A stretch of 63,531 nucleotides of DNA, counting the filler, from Globobulimina sp. (taxonomy: Eukaryota): assembly GCA_003354225.1 (NCBI GenBank). It is 24 parts of 24 records of this genome, joined end to end, with 100 filler letters (N's around TTAATTAATTAA, not from the genome) between each part and the next. Parts side by side here need not be neighbours in the genome. Positions count along the whole stretch, not along the records: positions 10,611 to 13,162 come from PIVH01006022.1; positions 13,263 to 15,814 come from PIVH01006023.1; 22 more parts are not named here. One strand, written 5' to 3'. The notes beneath the pieces were generated by a model. It had not been told where the DNA came from and did not search any database. It saw only the letters and a program-made list of their open reading frames with translations. Within the stretch, counting starts at the first letter, position 1. Every line of letters starts with the position of its first letter. A program made the position numbers and the translations under genes. Positions 2,860 to 61,080 of the stretch are shown piece by piece.

Positions 2860-5090
2860 TTATTTCCTATTTCCAACTGTGGGAACATTATCTGTGACAG
2901 TGACAGGAACTAACTCCGTTGTCTTTGCATGTGGAGCATCCTTTGGGATTGGATTAAATTGCTTGATATGTGGTGTTGCCTGCGGCCTTAATTTTGCATG
3001 TCTCGATTTGCCCGAAGCCAAATGTACAACGCCAGTCGCTGCTTTTCTATTTTTCATTGGTTTGAGTGCCGCGTCTTCGCCATCCATGCCATCGTCATCA
3101 GACTGGTCAACAGTGCTCGATGACAATCCCGATCCGCCTCTACCAAACACGGTCATGGCATGTCTCGTTTTTTTATCCTTTATCGCATATCCTTGCTTAT
3201 AATCGATAGCCACGCCGCCATGATCATGTTCATCCAATCCAGACCGCTCAATGTCTGCCGAGACCCGCAAAATGCCACAGAACTTCAACCACAAAAATAA
3301 GGCACCGATCCATAACACCACCCATAAAATGATGATAAACACTGCAAATATTTGCAAGCTTTAATACAAAAACAAAAATGCGCATTTTGACAAGTTGGAT
3401 TTATGCATATCACACTCACGAACTCCGTATCACAAATCCATGCAATATTTGCCGAAATCCAGCAGGTCAAACTGCTCTTTTTTGCTGTCACAATTCCGGC
3501 AATGAACTCCTTGCAACATCAACTACCTTAAGCGATATCCTTTGGTGGCATTGATCAACACAGCATTGTCCGGATACGTTACAGCAATATTCTCAGAACT
3601 CGCAAACAGGCCAACCGCCACAATCCCCCACATTCCACCACATCCATGAACTGCCCAAGCATCTGATCACAACACAGAAACACACAAACACTGCCTAACA
3701 AAGCACACAAACTGATACTGTACCTAAAGGATCGTCGACTTGAACCCGTTCCAAAAAGCGAGACGCAGTGTAATACACAATGGCGCCAAGCACACCAATC
3801 GCCAATGCGTCGCCAGTGTCCACCACAGCACACGGCGCAGTGATCGAGACCAAACCCGCTAAGATACCGTTACACACTCTCGGTAAACTGAAGTATCCCT
3901 CCAGTACACGGCCAGTGGTCGCAGCGGTAATACCGCCTCCAGCCGCGGCTAAGGTGGACGTCACAGCCACTTTGGAAGCAATGGCCATCACTCCATTGGC
4001 CGCCAAGGTACTGCCTGCGTTGAAGCCGTACCATCCAAACCATAGAATAAAAGTGCCCAACACCTGGAAAGGCACATTGTTGCCCAACGTGTGTTGCGAT
4101 TTGAGTGCTTCCCAATGTTTCAGCTCTTGTCGACTCAGACTATTCTTTGCTGTTTCTGCTGCAGCCCCAGCAGTGGCAGTGGCAGCGTCTGCTTGTGGCC
4201 CTGTTGCGGTTTGTGCCGCAGTGACCTGCTCATATTTGAATCTGTTGATCCGTGGACCCAACATGACTGCGCCCAGTAAGCCGCTCCAACCGCCCACCAT
4301 ATGCACCACACCGCTGCCGGCAAAGTCGATGACGCCGCCTGCGAAGTGAGCGTCGGGGTTGAAAGGCGAGAGCCAGCCATGAGAGGACCAAAACCAATGT
4401 ACCACGACAGGGTAAACCCACACTGTCAGCACGATTGTGTACGTAAAATAGCCAGACAACGAACAGCGTTCAGCTACGGAGCCAGACACAATTGTTGCTG
4501 CAGTCTGAAGATGGAAACAAAGTGCATTAATGCATGCGGATATATATAATGAATGGAAATGTTAGTTTTTTAACTGCAGCAAAAGCCCATTGGAAAAAGA
4601 ATGAGTTCCATTGGATGGGCGTGGCGGATAAGGCGACATTGTGGCAGCCAATGAATCCATTTATGGAACAGGCACCGTCGCCGTATGCCACTGCGTAGCC
4701 AAATAAATAGAATCCAATGGCCCCAACACAGGCATCCATCATGTTTTTGAATAAGATATTCTGAACGTTGCCGATTTTGACAGATCCAGCTTCCAACATT
4801 GTGAATCCAGTCTGCATGAAAAATACCATGGCTCCGGTGATGAGCACCCATAAATAATCTAAATCGAGCGCGTTTGCGATGGAACCATAGAATGGATTGT
4901 CGCACGAGTCGCAGGTTTGGGGCACTTCCTCGACGTCGAATTTGGAGGTATCGACACATAATGTTGCTAGCTGCGATGTGTTGGAATATGCATCGATTAC
5001 TTGGAAGCAAGACTCAGTCGGTGGTTGAGCTTTTATTGTGTTTGATATTGAGAGTGACAAAGTGCAGAGAATGAGGAATAACCAAGACAT
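2860..5090 (-). CDS. amt: Ammonium transporter (Amt family), 4 exons
   Basis: Motifs FFMQTGFTMLEAG, FFQWAFAA|TAATIVSG, DFAGSGVVH, LWFGWYGFN, NGILAGLV, DDPL|DAWAVHG and LRVS..E..GLD..DHG. Introns at 4574..4505, 3723..3663 and 3526..3359 keep the frame. Confidence 0.95.
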
Positions 5091-5657
5091 TCTTTTTGAG
5101 TGACACTGAGCTTACAAGATTTTGTATTTAATTTAGACAATGGCAAACATCTTTTAATTCGCTTGTGGATCTTTTACGCCATTGATTAATGAACCCAACA
5201 ACGAGANNNNNNNNNNNNNNNNNNNNNNNNNNNNNNNNNNNNNNNNNNNNTTAATTAATTAANNNNNNNNNNNNNNNNNNNNNNNNNNNNNNNNNNNNNN
5301 NNNNNNTCATTGTACTTTGTTGGAAAATATATTGTAGTTTTACTGTACTGATTGTACTTACTGATTGTTGAAAAATATATTTATTCCAATTTAATTGTGA
5401 TGCAATGCTAAATATTATGATTAAAAGTAGCATAATTTCAAAACTAATTCTTGTCCATTTTAAGCAACAGCAGTCAATCTTTGTCCGCATGACTTGTTGA
5501 CTATGTTTTGGATGTGTTTTTGTGTTGGTTCGACTGCGACATGATTGGATGTCGGACATTGTTGGTCGGCATTATTGGAAAATCCTTGCATTGATTTTAG
5601 GGAAAAAAATAATAATTTATCATAATAAAATTATAATATATAAATAGTACTTTTGTT

Positions 5658-7076
5658 TCAAAACGATTCACTTTCAGTTTGATTGAATCTTTTTGGACAA
5701 ATAACCGGCGCTAAAACCGTCCACCAAAATAATACTACGGTAACGCATTGTGTAGTAATATTAACAATCATTGATTGCTTTCCATCCGCAGCGCTTCTCA
5801 ATGTCCCAGCGCCCCAATCAGTTAATAACATTGCAAAATAACATGCCGCCAAAGTCAATATCAAATGAAAATAGGTATTACTTATTCGCTGTGTTCTTTC
5901 TGATGCCTCATTTCCATCATTTGCAATTATGTTTGATTCATCCTCACAAAGTACACTTTCTTCATTTTCAGGTTTTTTATCCTTTCCACTTTTTCTACTT
6001 TGTTTATCAAATTGATCCGATATCGACAATTCAATATTATTCACACTGCCATCCACAAATATATATTCATTATCATTTTTCTCCCATAAAACACCAATTC
6101 GATCCGCAATCAATGCAAAATAAAATATAGCAATAAATAAAAATACAAATCCAATCCATAACGAAGCAGAATTGCGATTATTTGCAAATGTATTACACCT
6201 CTCATCCGATGAGCTTTGTAACGCAGAAAAACATAAAAACGTAATATAAAATGAAACAATGGCCGACACAAATAATGATCCATCACCGCGAACTGCTGAA
6301 ATTATAAAGTTTAGTGTCAGCATAACGATTGTTAATGAAACTAATATTTTTTCAAAACTGCAACTTTTATCTAAAGCATACCATTTAAAAAATAAACAGC
6401 AAAACGTCAACGATATTGCATATAAACCAAATATGGTTACAGCTAAAATCACAAAATACCTATTACAGGAATTATTTTTTGTTTCTGTGTCCATTGAGCT
6501 CAGTGATGCACTTGATTGAGCGTTACCTTTTTCTTGCAGATAATCATTAATTTTATAACCATATAGTATAAAAATTAAAATTTGTAGCAATAAATAAATG
6601 CCAGAAACAAAACGTGCAAAGTAATCCGCATAGCCTTGAAAGAATTGATTTGAATGAGTTGAGTCGCCGACAACAAATGTTAATGTCAAACAGATGGTAA
6701 ATATAATAAATTTTAAGAAGAAGCAGAGCCAATGAAAGGAGATTGCACCGCAACCAATGACAACAACATGAATCAATTCAAAAATAAATAAAATACATGA
6801 CACTCTATATACTGATCCATTGCCTGAACAGGTTGAACTAGTGCATATTGATGAGGTATAAAATTCTAAATTTAATGCGGTTGTACCGTATAAACTCATT
6901 ACAATCGAAAAAATGCCAGCTATAAAAAATAAAAATATGTATGGAATGCGCGAAATCAAACCAAACCTTTGCCCTTATATAATTATATATTTTGTCATGT
7001 GCAGATATCGATTGTAAATACACAACAAATAAATGGTACCTTCGCATTCGCCACAACAGCTACAACATATTCCCAT
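5658..7076 (-). CDS. Serine incorporator (Serinc/TMS1 family) membrane protein
   Basis: Cys-rich start MGICCSCCGEC, intron 7039..6974, many TM helices, and motifs VYRVS, YFHLILTLAACYFAMLLTDW and WTVLAPVICP.R. Confidence 0.88.
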
Positions 7077-10510: not shown

Positions 10511-10669
10511 NNNNNNNNNNNNNNNNNNNNNNNNNNNNNNNNNNNNNNNNNNNNTTAATTAATTAANNNNNNNNNNNNNNNNNNNNNNNNNNNNNNNNNN
10601 NNNNNNNNNNTTTTTGTTATAGGATGTATGTGTTTAGGTTTTGTTTTATCTGAAGTATAATAGGGAGAA

Positions 10670-10996
10670 ATGAAAATGAAAGAAGAAGGTAGAATAGAAA
10701 TATGTTTAACACCATCAACTTATACACCATCACGTAATGTAAGAAAAGCAATGAATTTTGATGCTTATTGGTTTAAAGAAGCTATGTGTCCAATTGATAT
10801 TCCCACTAATGCCGATTCTGCCATGATTGGAAGAATGAATATGTCTATGAAACGTCAAGATGAAATATTAGAAAGAAGAAGAGATATAGCAAAAATGTTA
10901 TCAAAATCAATTTCAGATACCATATTAGATTATTTTGAACAACAAGATACAATAGATGGATATTCAAAAAAGGAATTTCGCAATGAAAACTATTAA
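10670..10996 (+). CDS. Phage hypothetical protein
   Basis: Shine-Dalgarno-like GGGAG before the ATG. First of five tightly packed, co-oriented, intronless ORFs. Confidence 0.8.
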   Translation: MKMKEEGRIEICLTPSTYTPSRNVRKAMNFDAYWFKEAMCPIDIPTNADSAMIGRMNMSMKRQDEILERRRDIAKMLSKSISDTILDYFEQQDTIDGYSKKEFRNENY

Positions 10997-11201
10997 TTTG
11001 GTAGATGGAACATCAAACACAGAAGTAGATGAAGTAATATTTTCAAAAGAAAGTAGATTAACAAGATTTGATCCTGATGATTTAGATCGTGTTGATAATT
11101 ATTTTTTTATTGCGACATCACAAAATGAATATATTAGATTACAAGATTGTGAAATTGATAATTTAATTGAAGCATTAAAACTTTTCACAGTAAAATCATA
11201 A
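10983..11201 (+). CDS. Phage hypothetical protein
   Basis: AAGGA precedes the ATG at 10983 (MKTINLVDG...). Overlaps the upstream stop. Confidence 0.7.
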   Translation: MKTINLVDGTSNTEVDEVIFSKESRLTRFDPDDLDRVDNYFFIATSQNEYIRLQDCEIDNLIEALKLFTVKS

Positions 11202-11257
11202 TATAGTCTTTAAAATTTACCTTCATAAAATCCATAAATAAAAACAAAAAGGATTTT

Positions 11258-11797
11258 ATGAAGGTTAGAATAGGAATTGATCTTTCTTTAAGATCAGCAG
11301 GAATAACAGTTGTTGATTTGAAAAACAAATTATTAAAAATTTATGTTCATCAACCAAAGAAATTAAAAGATGAAACATATGAAGAATTATTGATTAATAA
11401 TTTATCAAGATTCAAAGAAATAATAAATGAAATTATTATTAATTATGATGTTGTTCAAATAAATTTAGAAGGACTATCTTTTAATTCGTTATCATCAACA
11501 GCAGATGTTATTGATGCTCAATTTTGGTTTTTAAGATGTTTTATATTTGAATTAGGAATATCGTTAAAAATATTTGCTCCTGCTAATTGGAGAAAGATTA
11601 AAGAAATTAAAGATCCTGATATTAAATTGAAAACATATAAAGCCGAATTAGGAAAAGATTATTGGAAACTTTTAGCTTTAGGTAAATTGAATAAAGAAAC
11701 ACATGATATGATAATTTATCATTGTGAAGATAATAATTTGAAAACTAAAAGTGAATTTGATATTTGTGATAGTTATTGGATTGGATGCTGTGAATAA
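11258..11797 (+). CDS. Phage RuvC-like (RNase H fold) Holliday junction resolvase/nuclease
   Basis: N-terminal IGIDLSLRSAGITV, central INLEGLSF, C-terminal DICDSYWI give the D-E-D-D RuvC pattern. AAGGA RBS. Confidence 0.8.
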   Translation: MKVRIGIDLSLRSAGITVVDLKNKLLKIYVHQPKKLKDETYEELLINNLSRFKEIINEIIINYDVVQINLEGLSFNSLSSTADVIDAQFWFLRCFIFELGISLKIFAPANWRKIKEIKDPDIKLKTYKAELGKDYWKLLALGKLNKETHDMIIYHCEDNNLKTKSEFDICDSYWIGCCE

Positions 11798-11972
11798 AAA
11801 AGAAAATATAATTTTATGTTTAAAAAAGCAATCACAACTTAATATTGCTAAAATTGAATATGAAATGATGATATACGGTAATTATGGATTATCAAGATAT
11901 GAAGATTTTGATAACAAATCAATTAAAATAAAATCATTAGAACAAGAATTAAATGAATTAATATATGAATAA
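11790..11972 (+). CDS. Small phage hypothetical protein
   Basis: Fills the gap between the RuvC-like and DUF4326 genes with short overlaps. Start uncertain (GTG 11790 or 11751). Confidence 0.55.
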   Translation: MNKKENIILCLKKQSQLNIAKIEYEMMIYGNYGLSRYEDFDNKSIKIKSLEQELNELIYE

Positions 11973-12240
11973 ATTTGTTGTTCATTGTAAAAAAGATAAA
12001 TATGACGTTTATATAGGTAGAGGATCTGTTTTTGAAAATCCTTTTATAATAGGTATTGATGGAAACAGATCAGAGGTTATTGAAAAATATAGAAAATGGA
12101 TTTTAACACAACCAGAACTATTAAATAAAGTTAAATTATTAAAAGGAAAAATTCTTGGATGTTGGTGTGCTCCTAAGAGATGTCATGGTGATGTATTAGT
12201 TGAATTTGGTAATAAAAGTGATATTAACAAATTATTTTAA
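11965..12240 (+). CDS. DUF4326 family protein
   Basis: VVHCKK..YDVYIGRGS.F.NPF.IG.DG.R.EVIEKYR.W...LKGK.LGCWCAPKRCHGDVL is the characteristic DUF4326 signature. Confidence 0.9.
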   Translation: MNKFVVHCKKDKYDVYIGRGSVFENPFIIGIDGNRSEVIEKYRKWILTQPELLNKVKLLKGKILGCWCAPKRCHGDVLVEFGNKSDINKLF

Positions 12241-12248
12241 AATAACTA

Positions 12249-12277
12249 TTGACAACAAAATAATATTAATGTATAAT
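12249..12277 (+). promoter_or_regulatory. Consensus sigma70 promoter driving the RNA cluster
   Basis: TTGACA (12249-12254), 17-nt spacer, TATAAT (12272-12277). Confidence 0.9.
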
Positions 12278-12290
12278 GTATGTATAAAAA

Positions 12291-12426
12291 TTAAATAGTA
12301 CATTGTTCGGAGGGAGTTGTCTTGAAATAGACAAATGACTGTATTAATCACACGGTTAAAAGGGGTTGATTACCTTACAAGACAGACATGTGAGATCTTG
12401 TTCCTTCAGAAGAGTGTACTACTTAA
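12291..12426 (+). ncRNA. Putative structured ncRNA A (long closing stem plus 4 internal hairpins)
   Basis: TAGTACAT..GGAGGGA pairs with TTCCTTC..GTGTACTA. Internal stems TTGTCT/AGACAA, GACTGT/ACGGTT, AAGG/CCTT and ACAAGA/TCTTGT. Confidence 0.65.
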
Positions 12427-12432
12427 TATAAA

Positions 12433-12497
12433 AATTGATTATTGATATAAAGGATTGAAAGTGATAAATGCTGTACTCTTTATATCAATAATCAATT
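12433..12497. repeat. Perfect 20-bp inverted repeat with 25-nt loop
   Basis: AATTGATTATTGATATAAAG (12433-12452) and CTTTATATCAATAATCAATT (12478-12497). Confidence 0.95.
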
Positions 12498-12523
12498 ATG
12501 TAAATAAAAATAAAATTAAACAT

Positions 12524-12609
12524 GCCATCATTGAGTAGTGTGGTGAACTCATCAGACTGTAAATCTGTAGCCTAACGGCTTCTTGGTTCGATTCCAAGTG
12601 GTGGCACCA
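12524..12609 (+). tRNA. tRNA-Tyr(GTA), CCA encoded
   Basis: Acceptor GCCATCA/TGGTGGC, D stem GAGT/ACTC, anticodon loop CTGTAAA, long variable arm AGCC/GGCT, T arm CTTGG-TTCGATT-CCAAG, ACCA end. Confidence 0.95.
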
Positions 12610-12788
12610 AATAAAGCATTGATTATGGGGATAGCTTGTAAGGTCTAAAAAAGTTTTGGCCATTCTATAATAATTACCTAAAAGCCCCTGTATTAAATGC
12701 CAGGGAGATGCAGCAACTACGGAAGTATTAGATACAAATTATATCTAAGAAAGTAGACATCGCTGCTCCTCATAGTGAATGCTTTATT
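12610..12788 (+). ncRNA. Putative structured ncRNA B (179 nt)
   Basis: About 25-bp closing stem AATAAAGCATT-G-ATTATGGGGA-TAGC / GCTG-C-TCCTCATAGT-G-AATGCTTTATT. Three internal arms, one with an AGTA/GAA internal loop. Confidence 0.7.
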
Positions 12789-12800
12789 GAATAATTAAAT

Positions 12801-12873
12801 CGAGTAGGCTATAAGGTATGGGCGTAGTCTTGGACTCTTCGCTTAGTTGGTTCGATTCCAACCTACCCGACCA
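12801..12873 (+). tRNA. Atypical tRNA, probably Pro(TGG), CCA encoded
   Basis: Acceptor CGAGTAG/CTACCCG + ACCA (C1-G72, A73 as in Pro) and a perfect T arm GTTGG-TTCGATT-CCAAC. D and anticodon arms are non-canonical (loop CTTGGAC). Confidence 0.7.
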
Positions 12874-12882
12874 TTAAATTAT

Positions 12883-12959
12883 GGTGACGTTCATCCAGTT
12901 GGTTAGGAATACAGACCGTGACTCTGTAGACATGAGTTCAAATCTCATACGTCACACCA
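12883..12959 (+). tRNA. tRNA-His(GTG), CCA encoded
   Basis: G-1 + GTGACGT/ACGTCAC acceptor, anticodon stem ACAGA/TCTGT with loop CCGTGAC, T arm ATGAG-TTCAAAT-CTCAT, ACCA end. Confidence 0.9.
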
Positions 12960-12965
12960 TTTTTA

Positions 12966-13108
12966 ATTATGTATATATGCCCTCGCACCATAAGTTAAAA
13001 GCAAATGATTTTAACTGCAACTGAACAGAAGAGGGTTAACACTTTTCTTATTAAAGAATGTGAGAATATTACTCACTATGGACTGGTGAGGGGACATATA
13101 TACATAAT
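12966..13108 (+). ncRNA. Putative structured ncRNA C (143 nt)
   Basis: Perfect 14-bp ATTATGTATATATG/CATATATACATAAT, continued by CCCTCGC/GTGAGGG and CCATA/TATGG. Internal hairpins AGTTAAAA/TTTTAACT, AGAAGAG/CTTTTCT and GTGAG/CTCAC. Confidence 0.7.
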
Positions 13109-13371
13109 AATTTAATTGTATTGTAAAAAATTGGCCATCTTAGTATACAAAGAAACCACATCNNNNNNNNNNNNNNNNNNNNNNNNNNNNNNNNNNNNNN
13201 NNNNNNTTAATTAATTAANNNNNNNNNNNNNNNNNNNNNNNNNNNNNNNNNNNNNNNNNNNNAATAACACACAAAACGTATGGCGATATTGGATGGGGTC
13301 GAAAGTAATAATCTTAATGAAAATATTGATCGCAAGATAAGCAATGCCACACTTCCATCATTAAACATGTC

Positions 13372-18931: not shown

Positions 18932-20776
18932 TTACAAATTCTCAAATATTTTTTTGCCATCAAAGGTAAAATCCTCAAACGGCGCATATTTCCTCTTTGA
19001 GCCTTCCGGCGATTCAATAGCCATTCCAGTAAACTCCGGATCAAAATTAGCACCGCCAATCACACCATGCTTATCCTTGGACAACCTCGGCCTGAAAGGA
19101 GGTTCAATCTCTTTCCTGTACAATTGTTCCCAATGGATAGTCTGAAAGAATATGTGTGCCTGGACCTCTTTGGCGCCATTCCGCGCTCCCAATCTATACT
19201 TCGGATTGCGTTGCATTAATTGTTTCACAATGTCGATGGATTGGCGACTAAAATAATTTGGAAACCTTATCTTTTGTCGCAATATCTTATCAAACAAAGC
19301 ATCCCTCGATCGACTATAGAACGGCGGCACTCCGCATAGCATTTCATAGATTAACGCGCCTAATGTCCACCAATCCGCCGCCTTTCCATGGCCTACTTTG
19401 CGTAATATCTCTGGTGCCAAATATTCCGGCGTGCCGCAGAAAGAATGCGCCGACACATTATCGGGCACATTTTCCTTACAAAGGCCAAAATCAGTAATTT
19501 TAACATGTCCCGTACTGTCTAATAAGATATTCTCGGGCTTTATTCATTCAGTATAACATAAAAAGAGCGTAATATATATAATATAGCCACAAACCTTTAA
19601 ATCTCTATAAATGATATCCTTACAATGCAAATAGTCGACAGCTAAGACAATTTCTGCAATATAAAAACGTGTGCGATCTTCGGTGAAGCGGCCAGCTTTG
19701 GATAAATGGAAAAATAGCTCGCCGCCGGCGCAGTAATCCAACACTAAAAATAACTTAAAGTCAGTTTGAAATGCATAATGCAATGAGACTAAAAAGGGAT
19801 GATCCAAATAGCCCAACACGCGGCGCTCAGTCTTAGTATGTTCCACTTGATGCCGTTGGAACACCCGCTGCTTTTTAAGGCATTTCATAGCGAAGATCTT
19901 CTTATCATTCTTCTTGCGGACAAGCAAGACCTTACCAAAGGAGCCTTTGCCGAGAACTTTTAATAAGATAAAATCCTCCACAACGCACGACAAGCCACGG
20001 CCGCCATGGTTGCCATCCCCTGCGTCTTGCTGGCTGTCATCGATATTGTCCCCCAATAATTTATGCTTTTGCCAGTCCAAATATTCTGATAAATCTATGT
20101 ATATCGATATCAATTTTTATATATCTTATCCTCGCACATGGTGCTTATACATACATTTTGTTTGTTGTACATCAGGATTTGTGATGATGCCATCCAACCA
20201 TCGATCCAATGCCAATCGCATTTCGCGCAAAAAAGGTGCCTCGGCATTGGCCATATTGGAGGAATTGTTTGTAATTGCACTCGAATTGGATAATCCGCCC
20301 GATTTGATGCCAGAACTAAAGGCAAATTTGCTTCGTTTTGAGGTGGATGTATCTGAGGAAAGGGATGAATTTGGGACAGAAGTTTCAGAGGCTACGCCAT
20401 AGGGAAATAATGCAAAAGGTCGTAGTTGAGAGTTGGTGGCCTTTTGTAGGTTTTTGCGTAAATCTATAAATTCGGTCAAGGCTCTATCGACTGCCCAACT
20501 GTGGTTGTTATATTCCACAGAGATTCGAAATTTTATCTCAGGATATTCTATCTTTGCGGCTGCTTTGTTTTTGTGTCTATTTTTATTTACATTTTTCTCT
20601 TTTTTGGCGGGTAATTTTGGTTTTTTTTTAGATTGCTGTTTGGCTTCATCCTGTTTATCCATTTCTTGTTTTAATTCATCCAAATTTATTTGCAGTATGC
20701 GCGTCGATACGTTTCTTGTTTGCGATTTGGAGGATTGCGTATCATTCTTATGTTTCCGTCGAAACAGAAATGCCAT
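18932..20776 (-). CDS. AGC-family protein kinase with PX-like N-terminus (SGK3/Akt-like), 3 exons
   Basis: LGKGSFGKV, AMKCL, YRDLK|PENILL, DFG, GTPEYLAPE and hydrophobic motif FEDFTF. Introns 20154..20095 and 19594..19538. Confidence 0.95.
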
Positions 20777-39778: not shown

Positions 39779-42089
39779 CTCCATATCCAATTTATACTGA
39801 TTATCCCTCTCAATCTGGCATTCATTCAACCGGTCAATCTCTTCATTTTTCGCATTAATCATCGCCTCAATCTCTACATTCCTCTCTAAATTATACAGAT
39901 TAATCTCATTTTCCCGCTGTATCTTACATCCATTCAACTTGACAATCTCTTCATTTTTATCCTCAATCTCTTTAATTAACTGTTTAAACGCATTATCTTT
40001 ATCAAAATAGTCCCCTTTATACCTATTCAAGGCCTCAATCTCATCCATCTTCGCATTCAGCTCGTTGGCCACCTCCATATTGCACCGATTCAGCCCATCA
40101 ATGTGCGAATCTTTGGTCTTAATCTCATCCACCAACTGCTTATATTTTACATCTCGATCCAACCGACATTTATTCGCTGCCAATAGCTCCCGCTCCAAAT
40201 CCTTATTTATCTTCTCATAGACTCCGATATTACGGTTAAACTCATCACATTTATCCTTATACTCCACCTTCAATTTATCCATAATATCCATCAACTTCCG
40301 CGTCCGTTCCTTGCTCTCTGTAATCTCAATATGAAAACCTTGCAATTTGGCCTTCAAATCGCGATTGGAATGGGTTAATTTCTCCATTTTGTGCTCGGAG
40401 CCGTTCATGCTTGATTTGTAACTATTTATTTTATCCAATAATACGCGTTCATTCTCTTTGAAATCATGGTTTGTATGGCTTAATTGCCCCATTTTCTGTT
40501 CCGAACGCTTGTAACTATTCATTTTATCTAATAATACACGTTCATTCTCTTTGAAATTCTCGATTTGAACATCTCTGCGCTTAATCTCAGAGTACAAATG
40601 ATTTATTTCTGCGATTTTTTCCTCAAATTCCATCTCTTTTTGCGCCATTTGCTGCGATAATATCTTATATTTCTGTTCAGCTTTGTCGTCGATATCAATA
40701 TCTTCCTCTTCTTGAATGGATTGGATTTTATTACCATCTTGTTTTAATTTGAAAAACATGTCAATTTTCTTGAGTTTCTTGTTTTTTAGGCACATGACGG
40801 TCTGCCGCGTTTTCAATGCAGTTTTATACGCTTCGACGGCGATTTTACGCAACATTTCAATGTTACTCAATGAGTTGATGTAATGTATGTGCTCGTTGTC
40901 GTTGTTGCGGGCAAATATGCGTTTTTTATGTCGGGAGGAGGCGCGCGTCGAGTTCACCACTGGATTCATGGTGATTTTCTGCGAATTGCTCGCAAACTCC
41001 ATGGCCCGCATGGTTTCATTGTAGTCGTCATTGGTGATATGCGCATTGACAATCATGCTCACATAGCCATGGCCAGTCAAATACTGATACAATATCTTAG
41101 TTAACACCACCTCTCGCCAGGGGATGGCAGAGCGGCCACTTTGGATGGACTCGATGCAGCGACCCAAGGCACTCAAACTCGTATTGATTTCGCACGACTC
41201 ATTGAAGCGAACATCGCCGGGATCGAAGCCGGTTCTCTTTACGCTCTCAGAACCGGCTAGATCTACGATGCACATTTGCGATTTTAAAGTGCCGTCAGCA
41301 CCAAACAGATCCAACATAAACAGGGCGTGGCTGCGCGACGAATTTGTGTTCAATTTTGTGTGCGCTTTGCTGCGTTTTAAGTTACCAAATTCAATCAGTT
41401 GTAAGGCCTGCGTCGAGTCTGTGATTTGGATGGTGGTCAAATCCGGGATGTCTGCGCCGGAGGGCAGTGCCCGAATGGTTAGGCCTTTGGAGTTGTGTGG
41501 ATTGTCTTGTGAGAGTAGTAAGTCGTAGATGTCTTTGGTGTAATTTTCGAGATAAGAGGCGAATATATTGTACTGGCTGTGGTTGTTTTTGATGAGGCTG
41601 TGGTTGAATAGACCGGATAGTATGGACGGGATCAAGCCGTCGGACGGGATGGATGAACCCATGATGGTGTGGGTTTTACCAGAGCCGGTGATGCCGTATG
41701 AAAATATTAGATTGCTGTAACCAGAGAGAAATCGGGTGATTGCCACTTGGCCAAGTTTGTCGAAAACCTTTTTGGTTTCGGATAATGTGATTTTTTTTTA
41801 TTTATTTATTTTTTTGGTAGATTTAAACCTGAGAATTGATGGTTTGTTCGTCGAATATGTGGTTGAATGAGTAATTGCGAATGTCGGATTGGTTGGGAGA
41901 GGTCAAGGAGATGGATTGCTGTTCATTGCTGATTTGATAGGTTGCGGTGGAGACCGTGGCTTTGTTTCTTGGCCGAAGACGAAGAAATACTTCGAGATTG
42001 TTGGAACTTGCTTGTGGTGATTTGCGCTTCTTTGTGGGCGTGTTGTATCCGTCGAAATTTAATTTCTGTGTTGGATTATCGACCTCCAT
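39779..42089 (-). CDS. Kinesin (kinesin-6/MKLP-like) with coiled-coil tail, 3'-truncated
   Basis: VFLRLRP, YGITGSGKT, NSSRSH, VDLAGSE, INTSL..LGRCI, VSMIVN. Intron 41828..41768. Confidence 0.93.
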
Positions 42090-53031: not shown

Positions 53032-55581
53032 CAATAAGAGAACATGGAAAAAAATAAATAAAAAAAGATCAACAATTGAACGTTATAAAAGAAATGAAAT
53101 ACGAGAAATTGAAGCATTGATTGATAAATATTGCAAAAAGTTAATATTATATTTTATATATTAACATAAAATATATACTATATGTTAAAAAAGTGAACCA
53201 CAACGAAAGAAAGAAATATATTTGAAACTTTCTAAAAGAAATATTAATGATTTCGCTCCAAAATTCAATGTTTCAGAGACATTACAATTAATGGCTGATG
53301 TTGGGCTACAACCAAAGATTGTGGATAAATGTATGTCTCTTTATGTTTGTTTAGTGGCGTTTTCTAATCCAATTGGTTTACTAACGCAGTGCAACCGATA
53401 ATAAAAGAGAAATTAACCTGGTCTCTTTTTGCAAGTCATGGCAAAATTAATCAATTATATCAATCATTTATTTTATCATCATCAAAAATAACGCCAATGG
53501 TATTGTATCGAAATAAAACAAGCAAAGAATGGAAAATGGGAAATAAAACTGTTGTAACCAATGTATATATAGTTGAGGAATGGCAAGAAGCATTGGCATT
53601 GAATATAAAAAAAAATATTGACAATGAAGCATATAAAATACCAGATGGTGTTGATTCTGATTCAATTGTATATCACATTGGCGGTGATGCCGGGCAAAAA
53701 ATATTTCAAATGTCAATATCATCACTAACATGTTCTCATCCGAATAGTCCGAAAAATTCCGTTGTTTTAACAGCGTATGAAAATCCAGCAACAGACTCAT
53801 ACTATAATTTATCCAAAATTATTAATTATAATAAAATGGAAGCAGCTATGGGTCGTCCAATGATTGATATTATTACCTTAACGAAAGGAACGCAAATTAA
53901 ATCATATATTTCTGTATTAGCATTGGATCAATGGGGACAAACTACATTAAATTATTTAAAAGAAGCTCAGCATGAAACTTCTAAACCACAAAATCGTCCG
54001 AATCCCCAAACAGACCCAATCGGCGCATTGAAATATGATTTTGATTGTGAGTACGTTCAAGCTCATTATCCAGCAAAACATTTGCAAATAATATCAGCTC
54101 AACACTTATCTGGGTTTGTTGCAAATCATGATTGGGTTAAATATTGTAAATGGAGAGATATTGATGATACCACTGATAGAAAAATGTACGTTCAGCATGG
54201 ATTGTTGGATAGCAAATTCAGTGGAATAATATGTATTGAAGATAAAGGTAATGTTGTTTGTAATTTGAGGATACGAATTGTTGAAAAATCACCATTAAAT
54301 GATAAAGTTGAAATATATGGTCGGGGCCTTTATTATCCATCAATTCCATTAGATAACGTAACAAATATTGTGTCGAAAAATAATAAAAAATTTATTGTAT
54401 GCGATATTAATAATCCATTGACATCAAATGATAATTCTGATTCTGCAATTAAAATATGTTGGATACCACGAAAAGGTAAACCAAAAATCGGTGGTGACTT
54501 AGATTTTATTTGCAAAGTAGCTGGACACCGTGGATCACGGTGTAAATATCCCTCATATTTATGTGATATAATATGTGATAAAATTCGTTCAACGGATAAT
54601 ATTAATGGTTCAATTCAAACAAATTGCAAATATAGAACAAATGAATCTGTTTGGAATAATTTTACTAAATATTTAAAATGTGATGATTTAATTGAATGTA
54701 AAGGCATAGGAAATAAACCATTAATACCAATATATCCATGGTGTTGGACATTGCCTACTTTCCATATTCCCGAAGGTATTATGTTTAAACAACAACAAGC
54801 ATTGCTATATAGAATGCAACAACAAACAAATATGAATGAAGCACAAAACAATGATGACTTACAAAAATTAATTCAATTATATGATAAAAAAAGAAAAATA
54901 GATACTGAAATAATAGAATATGAACAGACAGATAAAATACTGGATTTTGGTTATGGTCTCGGAGATATTGATATGACTGTTTCTATGCTCACATATAAAC
55001 TACAAGATGAAATTGCAAACATTGATCAAAAAATTGCCCAACAAATGGAATTATTATCAGCGGAAAATGGGTATAAAAAAGTGTTTGAATACATGGATAG
55101 TAAAGGAATGATACAAAAGCATTATTGTCCAGGATCATTGCAAGGCTCTGTGGTTAAAAAAAATGTAGAACATTATGTGGAGTTATCTGAGAAGGTTGAA
55201 AACGAAATTGAGGTAAAATTAGGACAACAATATAAAATTTTGATGGATAAGTTTTCAATAATTTATTATGGGATCGCTAAGCATGGCAATAAAGAGTTAA
55301 ATGATCATCGGAAACAGCAAAAAATGATTAAAATATATGGATCAAAATATTCTGAAGCAGAAATAGCAAAAATTGAAACAGCTGTTTCAGAATTTATACC
55401 TTTATATTATGAGTTTCTAGACTCATTTGGGCCTCCTGCAGCAAAAAAAAATGAGGGACAATGTAACTCTGGAATTAAGGTTCATTATTTGGAGCATTTG
55501 ATTGATGTGATAATGTTTGTAAAAGGGTTGAGATTATCATATCTTAATGAGGAGCGCATAGAACATATGGTTAAGTATGTT
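53032..55581 (+). mobile_element. DDE transposase of Transib/Chapaev/RAG1-like type, intron-containing, partial
   Basis: IGGDAG...PNS..N...TDSY.NL, IGGDLDF...AGH.G..C.YP..LC, PTFHI.EG and KVH.LEH......LSYLNEE.IEH. Introns 53140..53193 and 53331..53389. Confidence 0.75.
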
Positions 55582-55693
55582 NNNNNNNNNNNNNNNNNNN
55601 NNNNNNNNNNNNNNNNNNNNNNNNNTTAATTAATTAANNNNNNNNNNNNNNNNNNNNNNNNNNNNNNNNNNNNNNNNNNNNGCAATTTCCGCC

Positions 55694-56801: not shown

Positions 56802-56864
56802 TGTGATGATGGGATTTGAACCCAAACTTCTTTAATTAGATGCTCTCATTGAGCTGTCATCACA
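56802..56864 (-). ncRNA. tRNA-like module with shortened anticodon arm
   Basis: TGTGATG/CATCACA acceptor-like stem, GCTC-AATGA-GAGC D arm, TGGG-TTCAAAT-CCCA T arm. Only a 3-bp TCT/AGA middle arm. Confidence 0.65.
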
Positions 56865-60881: not shown

Positions 60882-61080
60882 NNNNNNNNNNNNNNNNNNN
60901 NNNNNNNNNNNNNNNNNNNNNNNNNTTAATTAATTAANNNNNNNNNNNNNNNNNNNNNNNNNNNNNNNNNNNNNNNNNNNNCAAAACATCACCAGCCACT
61001 GTTGCAGTTTTATGCGAATTGTCTGACATCTTTCCCATGATTGAGACAGTGGTTTTCGTGTAGTTGGTAGAAGACAGAAA

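Follow-up and report, generated by a model that had tools for sequence, protein, structure and literature searches.

Structured noncoding segments interleaved with tRNA genes on a phage-like contig of a Globobulimina assembly: candidate RNAs of the T4/T5 stable-RNA kind

At the end of a short contig in the Globobulimina sp. genome assembly GCA_003354225.1, transfer RNA (tRNA) genes alternate with three segments that hold no protein gene and are predicted to fold into compact, well-bounded structures, which raises the question of whether these segments encode RNAs in their own right and, if so, of what kind. The contig (PIVH01006022.1) makes up positions 10611 to 13162 of the 63,531-nucleotide (nt) stretch of DNA analyzed here, which we call the window. 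The three segments, designated RNA A, RNA B, and RNA C, are real structured elements and are probably transcribed. They have not been catalogued before and are of a kind already known from phages T4 and T5. At a probability of roughly 0.5, we favor the reading that the locus is a T4/T5-type tRNA/stable-RNA operon from which A, B, and C would be freed by tRNA processing, accumulate, and act in trans.

A preliminary description of this DNA had proposed a phage RNA operon that is headed by a perfect sigma-70 promoter and lacks open reading frames (ORFs). Both of these features were confirmed. The promoter begins 9 nt past the stop codon of a gene for a DUF4326 protein, and neither strand of the 63.5-kb window has a second exact TTGACA-17-TATAAT sequence; no ORF of at least 60 amino acids (aa) was found in 12278 to 13162, the longest being of 55, 47, 36, 36, and 30 aa. 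Judging from the usual spacing, transcription would start near positions 12283 to 12286. Downstream lie, in this order, RNA A, a 21-bp hairpin, tRNA-Tyr, RNA B, a tRNA look-alike, tRNA-His, and RNA C (Table 1). The gaps between the RNAs and the adjoining tRNA genes measure 0, 11, 9, and 6 nt, and with spacers of only 0 to 11 nt tRNA processing would therefore define the RNA ends. No terminator-like site was called on the + strand of the cluster, a layout that together with the one consensus promoter fits a single transcript. To that extent the operon proposal stands; what is present of the cluster is 0.9 kb at the end of a contig of 2.55 kb, cut short because position 13162 is the contig end, a run of 44 N beginning at 13163. 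The element broken off there, of which positions 13134 to 13162 are present, opens with GGCCATC, near the 5' acceptor strand of tRNA-Tyr (GCCATCA).

TABLE 1 Positions of the RNA cluster, of its neighbors on the contig, and of other features of the window
Feature	Position(s)	Strand	Score or remark
Consensus sigma-70 promoter, TTGACA-17-TATAAT	12249-12277	+	12/12 match
RNA A	12290-12428	+	-41.5 kcal/mol, z -4.50
AT-rich hairpin	12433-12497	+	-22.7 kcal/mol, z -5.90
tRNA-Tyr (GTA), long variable arm (bacterial type, class II), CCA encoded	12524-12609	+	ARAGORN; Rfam 52.0 bits
RNA B	12610-12789	+	-52.6 kcal/mol, z -4.73
tRNA look-alike ("tRNA-Pro-like")	12800-12873	+	T arm, acceptor stem, and CCA canonical (read from sequence)
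tRNA-His (GTG), encoded extra G at 12883 before position 1, CCA encoded	12883-12959	+	
RNA C	12966-13109	+	-45.6 kcal/mol, z -7.01
AT-rich linker plus first bases of another element, cut at contig end	13110-13162	+	Sequence
DUF4326 gene, 91 aa, final protein gene ahead of the RNA cluster	11965-12240	+	Marks the fragment as phage-like
ORFs of note on the contig	10670-10996, 10956-11201, 11258-11797, 11751-11972, 11965-12240	+	
Linkers	2554-2653, 5207-5306, ... 60882-60981		Joins between pieces
Eukaryote-type genes, example places	3695-5090, 5658-6959, 18932-20776, 39779-41746, 53389-55629		

The elements between the tRNA genes fold far better than expected from their composition. When the minimum free energy of each was compared with that of 200 dinucleotide shuffles, none of the 200 was as stable for A, B, C, or the hairpin, the z-scores of the three RNAs ranging from -4.50 to -7.01. 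The RNAs measure 136 to 180 nt, and in each the two ends pair into a long stem enclosing three to four hairpins, as had been described. RNA A has a closing stem of about 18 to 23 pairs, interrupted by single-base internal loops, and a five-way junction with four hairpins. RNA B, whose first base directly follows the CCA of tRNA-Tyr, is closed by 21 pairs (11 + 10) and carries three arms, while the 21 closing pairs of RNA C (14 + 7) are followed by 5 further pairs and then by three hairpins. The predicted closing helices, of 21 to 23 pairs with small internal loops, thus correspond to about two turns of double-stranded RNA (dsRNA). The hairpin that had been noted between A and tRNA-Tyr comprises 21 closed pairs and a top of about 23 nt; no U tract follows it on the + strand, and it was not called as a terminator. 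These modules persist when the whole putative transcript of 879 nt is folded, with mean pair probabilities of 0.85 to 0.94 (0.94 to 0.98 for the outer 12 pairs); 44 of the 47 pairs of RNA A and 57 of the 59 of RNA B then have a probability above 0.5.

Because the boundaries of the RNAs came from the preliminary description, we also ran an RNALfold z-score scan over both strands of the window, which consists of 24 unrelated pieces of 2550 to 2553 nt, ordered by size. The scan recovered the boundaries of A, B, and C to within 1 to 2 nt. Among its 398 local structures at z <= -3, five of the seven best scores sit in the piece 10611 to 13162, and four of the seven are A, B, C, and the hairpin. The hairpin ranked first (12432 to 12497, z -7.35, scored on the - strand), and RNAs C, B, and A, at exactly the + strand positions of Table 1, ranked second (z -7.06), fifth (z -5.68), and seventh (z -5.37). 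In a regression-based scan on a fixed grid, RNA C was the lowest of 1176 windows and alone in standing out, because windows placed on a grid cut through the long stems that close A and B.

Structure of this strength could in principle belong to the DNA rather than to a transcript, A, B, and C being MITE-like (miniature inverted-repeat transposable element) insertions with palindromic ends, or inverted repeats bound by a protein, and the folding of the RNA a by-product. Near-perfect terminal inverted repeats of 20 to 24 bp do occur in each of the three, both strands fold far better than their shuffles, and phage tRNA clusters are places where homing-endonuclease genes land (segB in T4, the heg genes in T5). 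The + strand is nevertheless favored in all four elements, by 2.8 to 9.8 kcal/mol (RNA A, -41.5 versus -31.7; RNA B, -52.6 versus -47.2; RNA C, -45.6 versus -41.9; hairpin, -22.7 versus -19.9). No target duplications flanking the elements were seen by eye, no extra copies of them occur in the window or in any collection searched, and A, B, and C are mutually unrelated. An explanation at the DNA level fits poorly, and we consider it highly improbable.

A MAFFT alignment had suggested motifs common to A and C; local alignment scores, however, fell within those of dinucleotide shuffles (z 0.95, -1.42, and 0.41), and single-sequence covariance models built from A, B, and C (R1 to R3) gave no cross-matches among one another, and we rejected the idea that the RNAs are paralogs. 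Loop-loop pseudoknots were likewise rejected, since 103, 177, and 827 of 1000 shuffles contained a complement between unpaired segments at least as long as the longest one observed. A palindromic hexamer is present in 3 of the 10 hairpin loops of A to C (ATTAAT at 12343 to 12351, GTTAAC at 13034 to 13041, and AATATT at 13065 to 13071), which counts as a further point for elements acting as DNA. Within-loop shuffling matched this number in 58 of 20000 trials, and elsewhere in the window 52 of 607 predicted loops carry such a hexamer; the test was made post hoc, and the signal is a weak lead.

Of the tRNA genes reported for the cluster, tRNA-Tyr and tRNA-His were both detected by ARAGORN (the latter at 12884 to 12959) and belong to Rfam family RF00005, with 52.0 and 52.5 bits against a gathering cutoff of 29. 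The third, described as tRNA-Pro-like, has the outer parts of a tRNA: a perfect T arm (GUUGG-UUCGAUU-CCAAC), an acceptor stem of 8 to 9 pairs (one position is an A.C mismatch), and an encoded CCA. Its inner parts are defective by eye, in that a loop CUUGGAC (UGG, Pro) requires a stem that includes two U.U mismatches and the D loop is short. It scored 15 bits with RF00005 (cutoff, 29) and 20.6 bits with the tRNA-Sec model (cutoff, 47), ARAGORN did not report it even with thresholds lowered to 80%, and its folding is at shuffle level (z -0.44). The description as tRNA-Pro-like is thus borne out only in part, 12800 to 12873 reading as a degenerate, defective tRNA. The two intact tRNAs, Tyr GUA and His GUG, share a G/Q-U-N anticodon and fall in the group of four such tRNAs cut by colicin E5-type anticodon nucleases; with n = 2 on a truncated contig, this may be coincidence.

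With a degenerate tRNA next to them and tRNA positions as their places in the array, A, B, and C might also be seen as tRNA relics, or as tRNAs with large insertions. The T-loop motif is, however, restricted in the cluster to the three tRNA and tRNA-like genes, none of the three RNAs matched a model of the tRNA clan at E <= 10, and lengths of 136 to 180 nt with 21-pair closing stems are foreign to such a derivation. This explanation also fits poorly, and we give it next to no credence.

The statement that none of the RNAs belongs to a named family was upheld: A, B, C, and the hairpin matched none of the 4227 models of Rfam 15, even at E <= 10. Besides the two tRNAs, the matches obtained at that threshold scored 11 to 22 bits against cutoffs of 29 to 167. 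The search for homologs proposed at the outset was carried out and returned none for A, B, or C. With the whole cluster as the blastn query, INPHARED gave four records, each aligned at tRNA-Tyr only. At E <= 5, RNA A matched nothing there, RNA B matched 5 records at E values of 0.2 to 2, and RNA C matched 30 records, of which the 15 listed have E values of 0.05 or more; the listed matches of B and C fall in unrelated genes or in unannotated records. The three RNAs matched no plasmid in PLSDB. Across up to 162 fetched loci (1.04 Mb), blastn and nhmmer found nothing below an E value of about 0.01, and nothing in 25 further loci. The covariance models recovered themselves alone in 100 of the 162 loci plus the window (806 kb) and nothing in four whole IMG/VR records (L104 left out).

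Exact-pattern scans of IMG/VR gave no match for a 21-mer of tRNA-Tyr, for a loop/junction pattern of RNA C, or for a hairpin of RNA B. A 17-mer of RNA A gave 11 chance matches with a best model score of 14.9 bits, and the 3' half of tRNA-Tyr was found at 25 loci, none with an adjoining A, B, or C. In the species genomes of the genome_contigs collection, 22- and 24-mers of C and B gave 0 and 0 matches. Relatives of the DUF4326 gene (55 viral and 80 metagenome loci, at identities of up to 68%) were accompanied neither by any of the other genes of the contig nor by A, B, or C.

The proposed phage origin of the contig was supported by its protein genes, which are all on the + strand and closely packed or overlapping. 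The DUF4326 protein matches Pfam PF14216 (1e-26) and phrog_464 (6.3e-32), and by tblastn it has matches in 1356 phage records, the best at 55 to 61% identity; many of these phages are large (XacN1, KVP40-like vibriophages, and a 735-kb uncultured phage). A neighboring protein of 179 aa, from the gene that starts at 11258, shows weak similarity to a phage family of RuvC-like resolvases (phrog_159, 1.9e-6). Its relatives at 73 to 82% identity come solely from ENA/Logan assemblies (proteins P0001 to P0004, the largest of the encoding contigs being those of P0004, 27,010 nt, and P0003, 3,731 nt); IMG/VR contains relatives in 25 viral contigs at 24 to 42% identity, and none was found in genome_contigs or in INPHARED. 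The contig is quite likely derived from a phage.

Those of the other pieces that we examined have a eukaryotic look. The 46 runs of exactly 44 N in the window form 23 linkers of the form N44-TTAATTAATTAA-N44, any reading across which is an artifact, and the RNA cluster is confined to its single piece, the G+C content of which (0.276) is the lowest of the 24. Outside this piece, many of the larger ORFs have eukaryote-type domains, and several are in fragments consistent with short introns. Examples are a kinesin motor, Serinc, a protein kinase (two ORFs) beside a PX domain, an ammonium transporter divided between two ORFs, an amino-acid transporter fragment, DUF1280, and a zinc-knuckle protein. 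The phage-like contig is probably a passenger in a eukaryotic assembly.

A passenger need not be a phage, and the cluster could instead be the tRNA operon of a bacterial chromosome, a plasmid, or a symbiont contaminating the eukaryotic assembly, in which case A, B, and C would be bacterial small RNAs. The bacterial-type promoter and the class II tRNA-Tyr with its encoded CCA would suit such a source, on a contig of only 2.55 kb within a window that is otherwise eukaryote-like. Against this stand the many phage records that match the DUF4326 gene, the distribution of the relatives of the 179-aa protein (25 IMG/VR viral contigs and none of the genome_contigs species genomes), and the short overlapping genes, all in one direction, in the piece of lowest G+C. 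We regard a nonphage source as distinctly unlikely.

The main rival to the operon reading accepts the transcript and the cleavage and denies the products a role: the helices of about 21 pairs would be RNase III-type cleavage signals or folding insulators between tRNAs, comparable to the flanking stems of rRNA operons, and the excised pieces would be inert. Four elements within 0.9 kb, each with a closing helix of about 21 pairs or some two turns of dsRNA, are what such spacers might look like. The helices are also about twice as long as the 5 to 12 pairs of the T4/T5 stable RNAs, RNA B abuts the CCA of tRNA-Tyr without a gap, and conservation of A to C could not be demonstrated. For cleavage or insulation, however, a simple hairpin like that at 12433 to 12497 would suffice, whereas A, B, and C enclose three to four more hairpins each, in multiway junctions that are kept in the ensemble; moreover, going by the annotations of the T4 and T5 records, RNAs comparable to these build up in stable form in both phages. 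The predicted complexity of the inner junctions argues against inert spacers, which we judge unlikely.

To place the cluster among phage tRNA arrays in general, we compared it with the inter-tRNA gaps of 90 to 700 nt in eight arrays, taken from the fetched loci and the T4 region. A local structure at z <= -4.5 was present in only 4 of 27 gaps, and two of these four contain ORFs (149 and 176 aa). The density of strong structure in the cluster is high relative to such arrays.

Several points weigh against the operon reading. That strong structure is not the rule for inter-tRNA spacers says nothing about function. At about 21 pairs, the closing helices have a length sufficient for RNase III, and the RNAs might be cut rather than stabilized. 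The number of G.U pairs is nearly equal in the two orientations (14 in the + folds and 13 in the - folds), so that the strand asymmetry comes from energy only. No homolog of A, B, or C turned up in any collection searched, and the structures are supported by one sequence each. The T5 RNAs are stable species according to their annotation; A to C, and their transcription, are predictions from sequence. The phage assignment, finally, comes from one domain family plus weak matches on a contig of 2.55 kb.

Under the operon reading, what we infer for transcription, processing, stability, and function is as follows. Host RNA polymerase would begin an early transcript at the sigma-70 promoter, spanning A, the hairpin, tRNA-Tyr, B, the look-alike, tRNA-His, C, and more past the contig end. 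This precursor would be cut by tRNA-processing enzymes, that is, by RNase P at the 5' ends of the tRNAs and by an endonuclease with subsequent trimming at the CCA ends, and cleavage at the tRNAs would leave A, B, and C as individual molecules of 136 to 180 nt. With both ends locked in helices of about 21 pairs, they could be shielded from exonucleases and so accumulate. Our best guess is that during infection they would then act in trans as more than mere spacers, binding protein and serving as sponges or decoys that take up a nuclease or an RNA-binding factor of the host.

The more specific suggestion that the RNAs are decoys against anticodon nucleases found no backing in their sequences. 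The hairpins of A to C contain no T-loop motif, and none of their loops, read by eye, is a canonical 7-nt loop of the anticodon type, in which the second base is U. A decoy role for A to C is possible, with no feature that specifically supports it. The evasion of tRNA-targeting defenses by phage tRNAs, the subject of PMC10264068, PMC11464382, and PMC11555353, concerns tRNAs and not RNAs like A to C.

A bolder view, to which we assign a low probability, is that A, B, and C found three new families of phage effector RNAs, delivered from a tRNA-punctuated early transcript and acting on the host. One route within it would be for the helices of about 21 pairs to bind and titrate an RNA-directed defense or a dsRNA-binding nuclease. 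In another, the loop palindromes (AUUAAU, GUUAAC, and AAUAUU) would pair and so build RNA-only assemblies. Assemblies of this type are formed by the far larger ROOL and GOLLD RNAs; for A to C they are a conjecture.

Other observations concern the neighborhood of the cluster. Among 135 fetched loci with relatives of DUF4326 (128 of them distinct sequences), 13 have a tRNA gene at a distance of at most 500 nt and 21 at a distance of at most 2 kb, while of 25 comparison loci fetched with the RuvC-like gene none has a tRNA nearby. The DUF4326 gene stands inside or beside phage tRNA arrays in loci L006 to L011, L013, L060 to L062, L072, L075, L104, L111, L112, L122, L123, L126, and L135. This hints at a functional link of DUF4326 to tRNA or RNA biology. 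In an unrelated piece of the window, positions 56802 to 56863 (- strand) match the tRNA model at 33.9 bits, just over the cutoff of 29, with no call by ARAGORN.

Farther upstream on the contig, a perfect hairpin of 15 pairs (11219 to 11265, + strand) lies directly before the gene of the RuvC-like 179-aa protein. Read by eye, its 3' arm takes in both the ATG at 11258 and an AAGGA ribosome-binding site. The hairpin ranked third in the local-structure scan of the window (11207 to 11276, + strand, z -6.94) and has a z-score of -3.52 in a 96-nt context. As modeled, the arrangement looks like a translational occlusion of the start site, such as is known for some T4 genes. The loop contains CATAAATA, one base off the T4 late-promoter octamer; a T4-type late promoter was rejected at this site, the exact TATAAATA being absent from the piece.

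Which known RNAs, then, do A, B, and C resemble? ROOL and GOLLD, which had been named as precedents, are indeed RNAs of phages and prophages often found close to tRNA islands, and in many GOLLD RNAs the length is above 800 nt (PMC12286853). Both are Rfam families, with sizes of several hundred nt and without a match to A to C at E <= 10, and A to C have only 136 to 180 nt. The Y RNAs (YrlA) offer a parallel in that their 5' and 3' ends form a long stem, as do those of A to C, and some are phage encoded (PMC4201824). A to C contain neither the Y RNA motif GNCGAA(N)G nor the internal tRNA-like T arm of that group, the genes of which adjoin Ro60 (rsr), and, as said, have no Rfam match.

The nearest counterparts are the stable RNAs of T4 and T5, the other precedent invoked, and the sequence records bear it out. 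In the T4 record the tRNA cluster ends in two annotated RNAs, rnaC (species 1, 139 nt) and rnaD (species 2, 119 nt), and the T5 record (NC_005859) lists eight "stable RNA with unknown functions" among its tRNA genes, namely, RNAIII, RNAI, RNA1, RNA2H, RNAIV, RNA2, RNA3, and RNAX. When we scanned these regions with Rfam 15 (positions 2285 to 5084 of L199 for T5 and 2909 to 3172 of L137 for T4), none of the 10 stable RNAs was matched, all 29 matches being to tRNAs. Since Rfam misses all 10, the lack of an Rfam match does not set A to C outside the T4/T5 kind. Direct similarity was not detected either: with filters off, no match of the covariance models of A to C to the T4 and T5 regions exceeded 15 bits (E >= 0.038), and rnaC and rnaD were left unmatched by blastn and nhmmer searches with A to C on loci that included the T4 region.

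The likeness is one of design. Of nine T4/T5 stable RNAs that we folded (all but the 719-nt RNAX of T5), eight form a single domain in which paired 5' and 3' ends enclose one to four hairpins. The exception is T4 rnaD, which folds at shuffle level (z -0.83). rnaC has paired ends around three hairpins and a z-score of -4.57, like those of A and B; it is tRNA-like, with a canonical T arm (CCGGGUUCGAAUCCCGG) that A to C lack. As with A to C, the T5 RNAs stand between tRNA genes and share their strand, separated from them by a few bases. Seven of the eight measure 73 to 172 nt, all seven of them single domains of the type just described, and three directly follow tRNA-His, as RNA C does here. Unlike A to C, which have no T arm, three T5 RNAs are annotated as tRNA-like. 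The closing stems also differ, at 6 to 12 pairs in T5, and 5 to 12 in T4 and T5 overall, versus 21 to 23 in A to C.

The stable RNAs of the T4 and T5 tRNA clusters are annotated, yet without an assigned function, and a single case without relatives does not advance the question of what such RNAs do. Each well-bounded case does show a design recurring in unrelated phages, with paired ends, inner hairpins, and termini defined by tRNAs, and each also supplies a small, testable RNA. By their layout, as non-tRNA elements on the same strand as the tRNA genes, set off by short spacers and folded into one domain with paired ends, A, B, and C fit the T4/T5 kind, to which the cluster described here adds unusually long closing helices.

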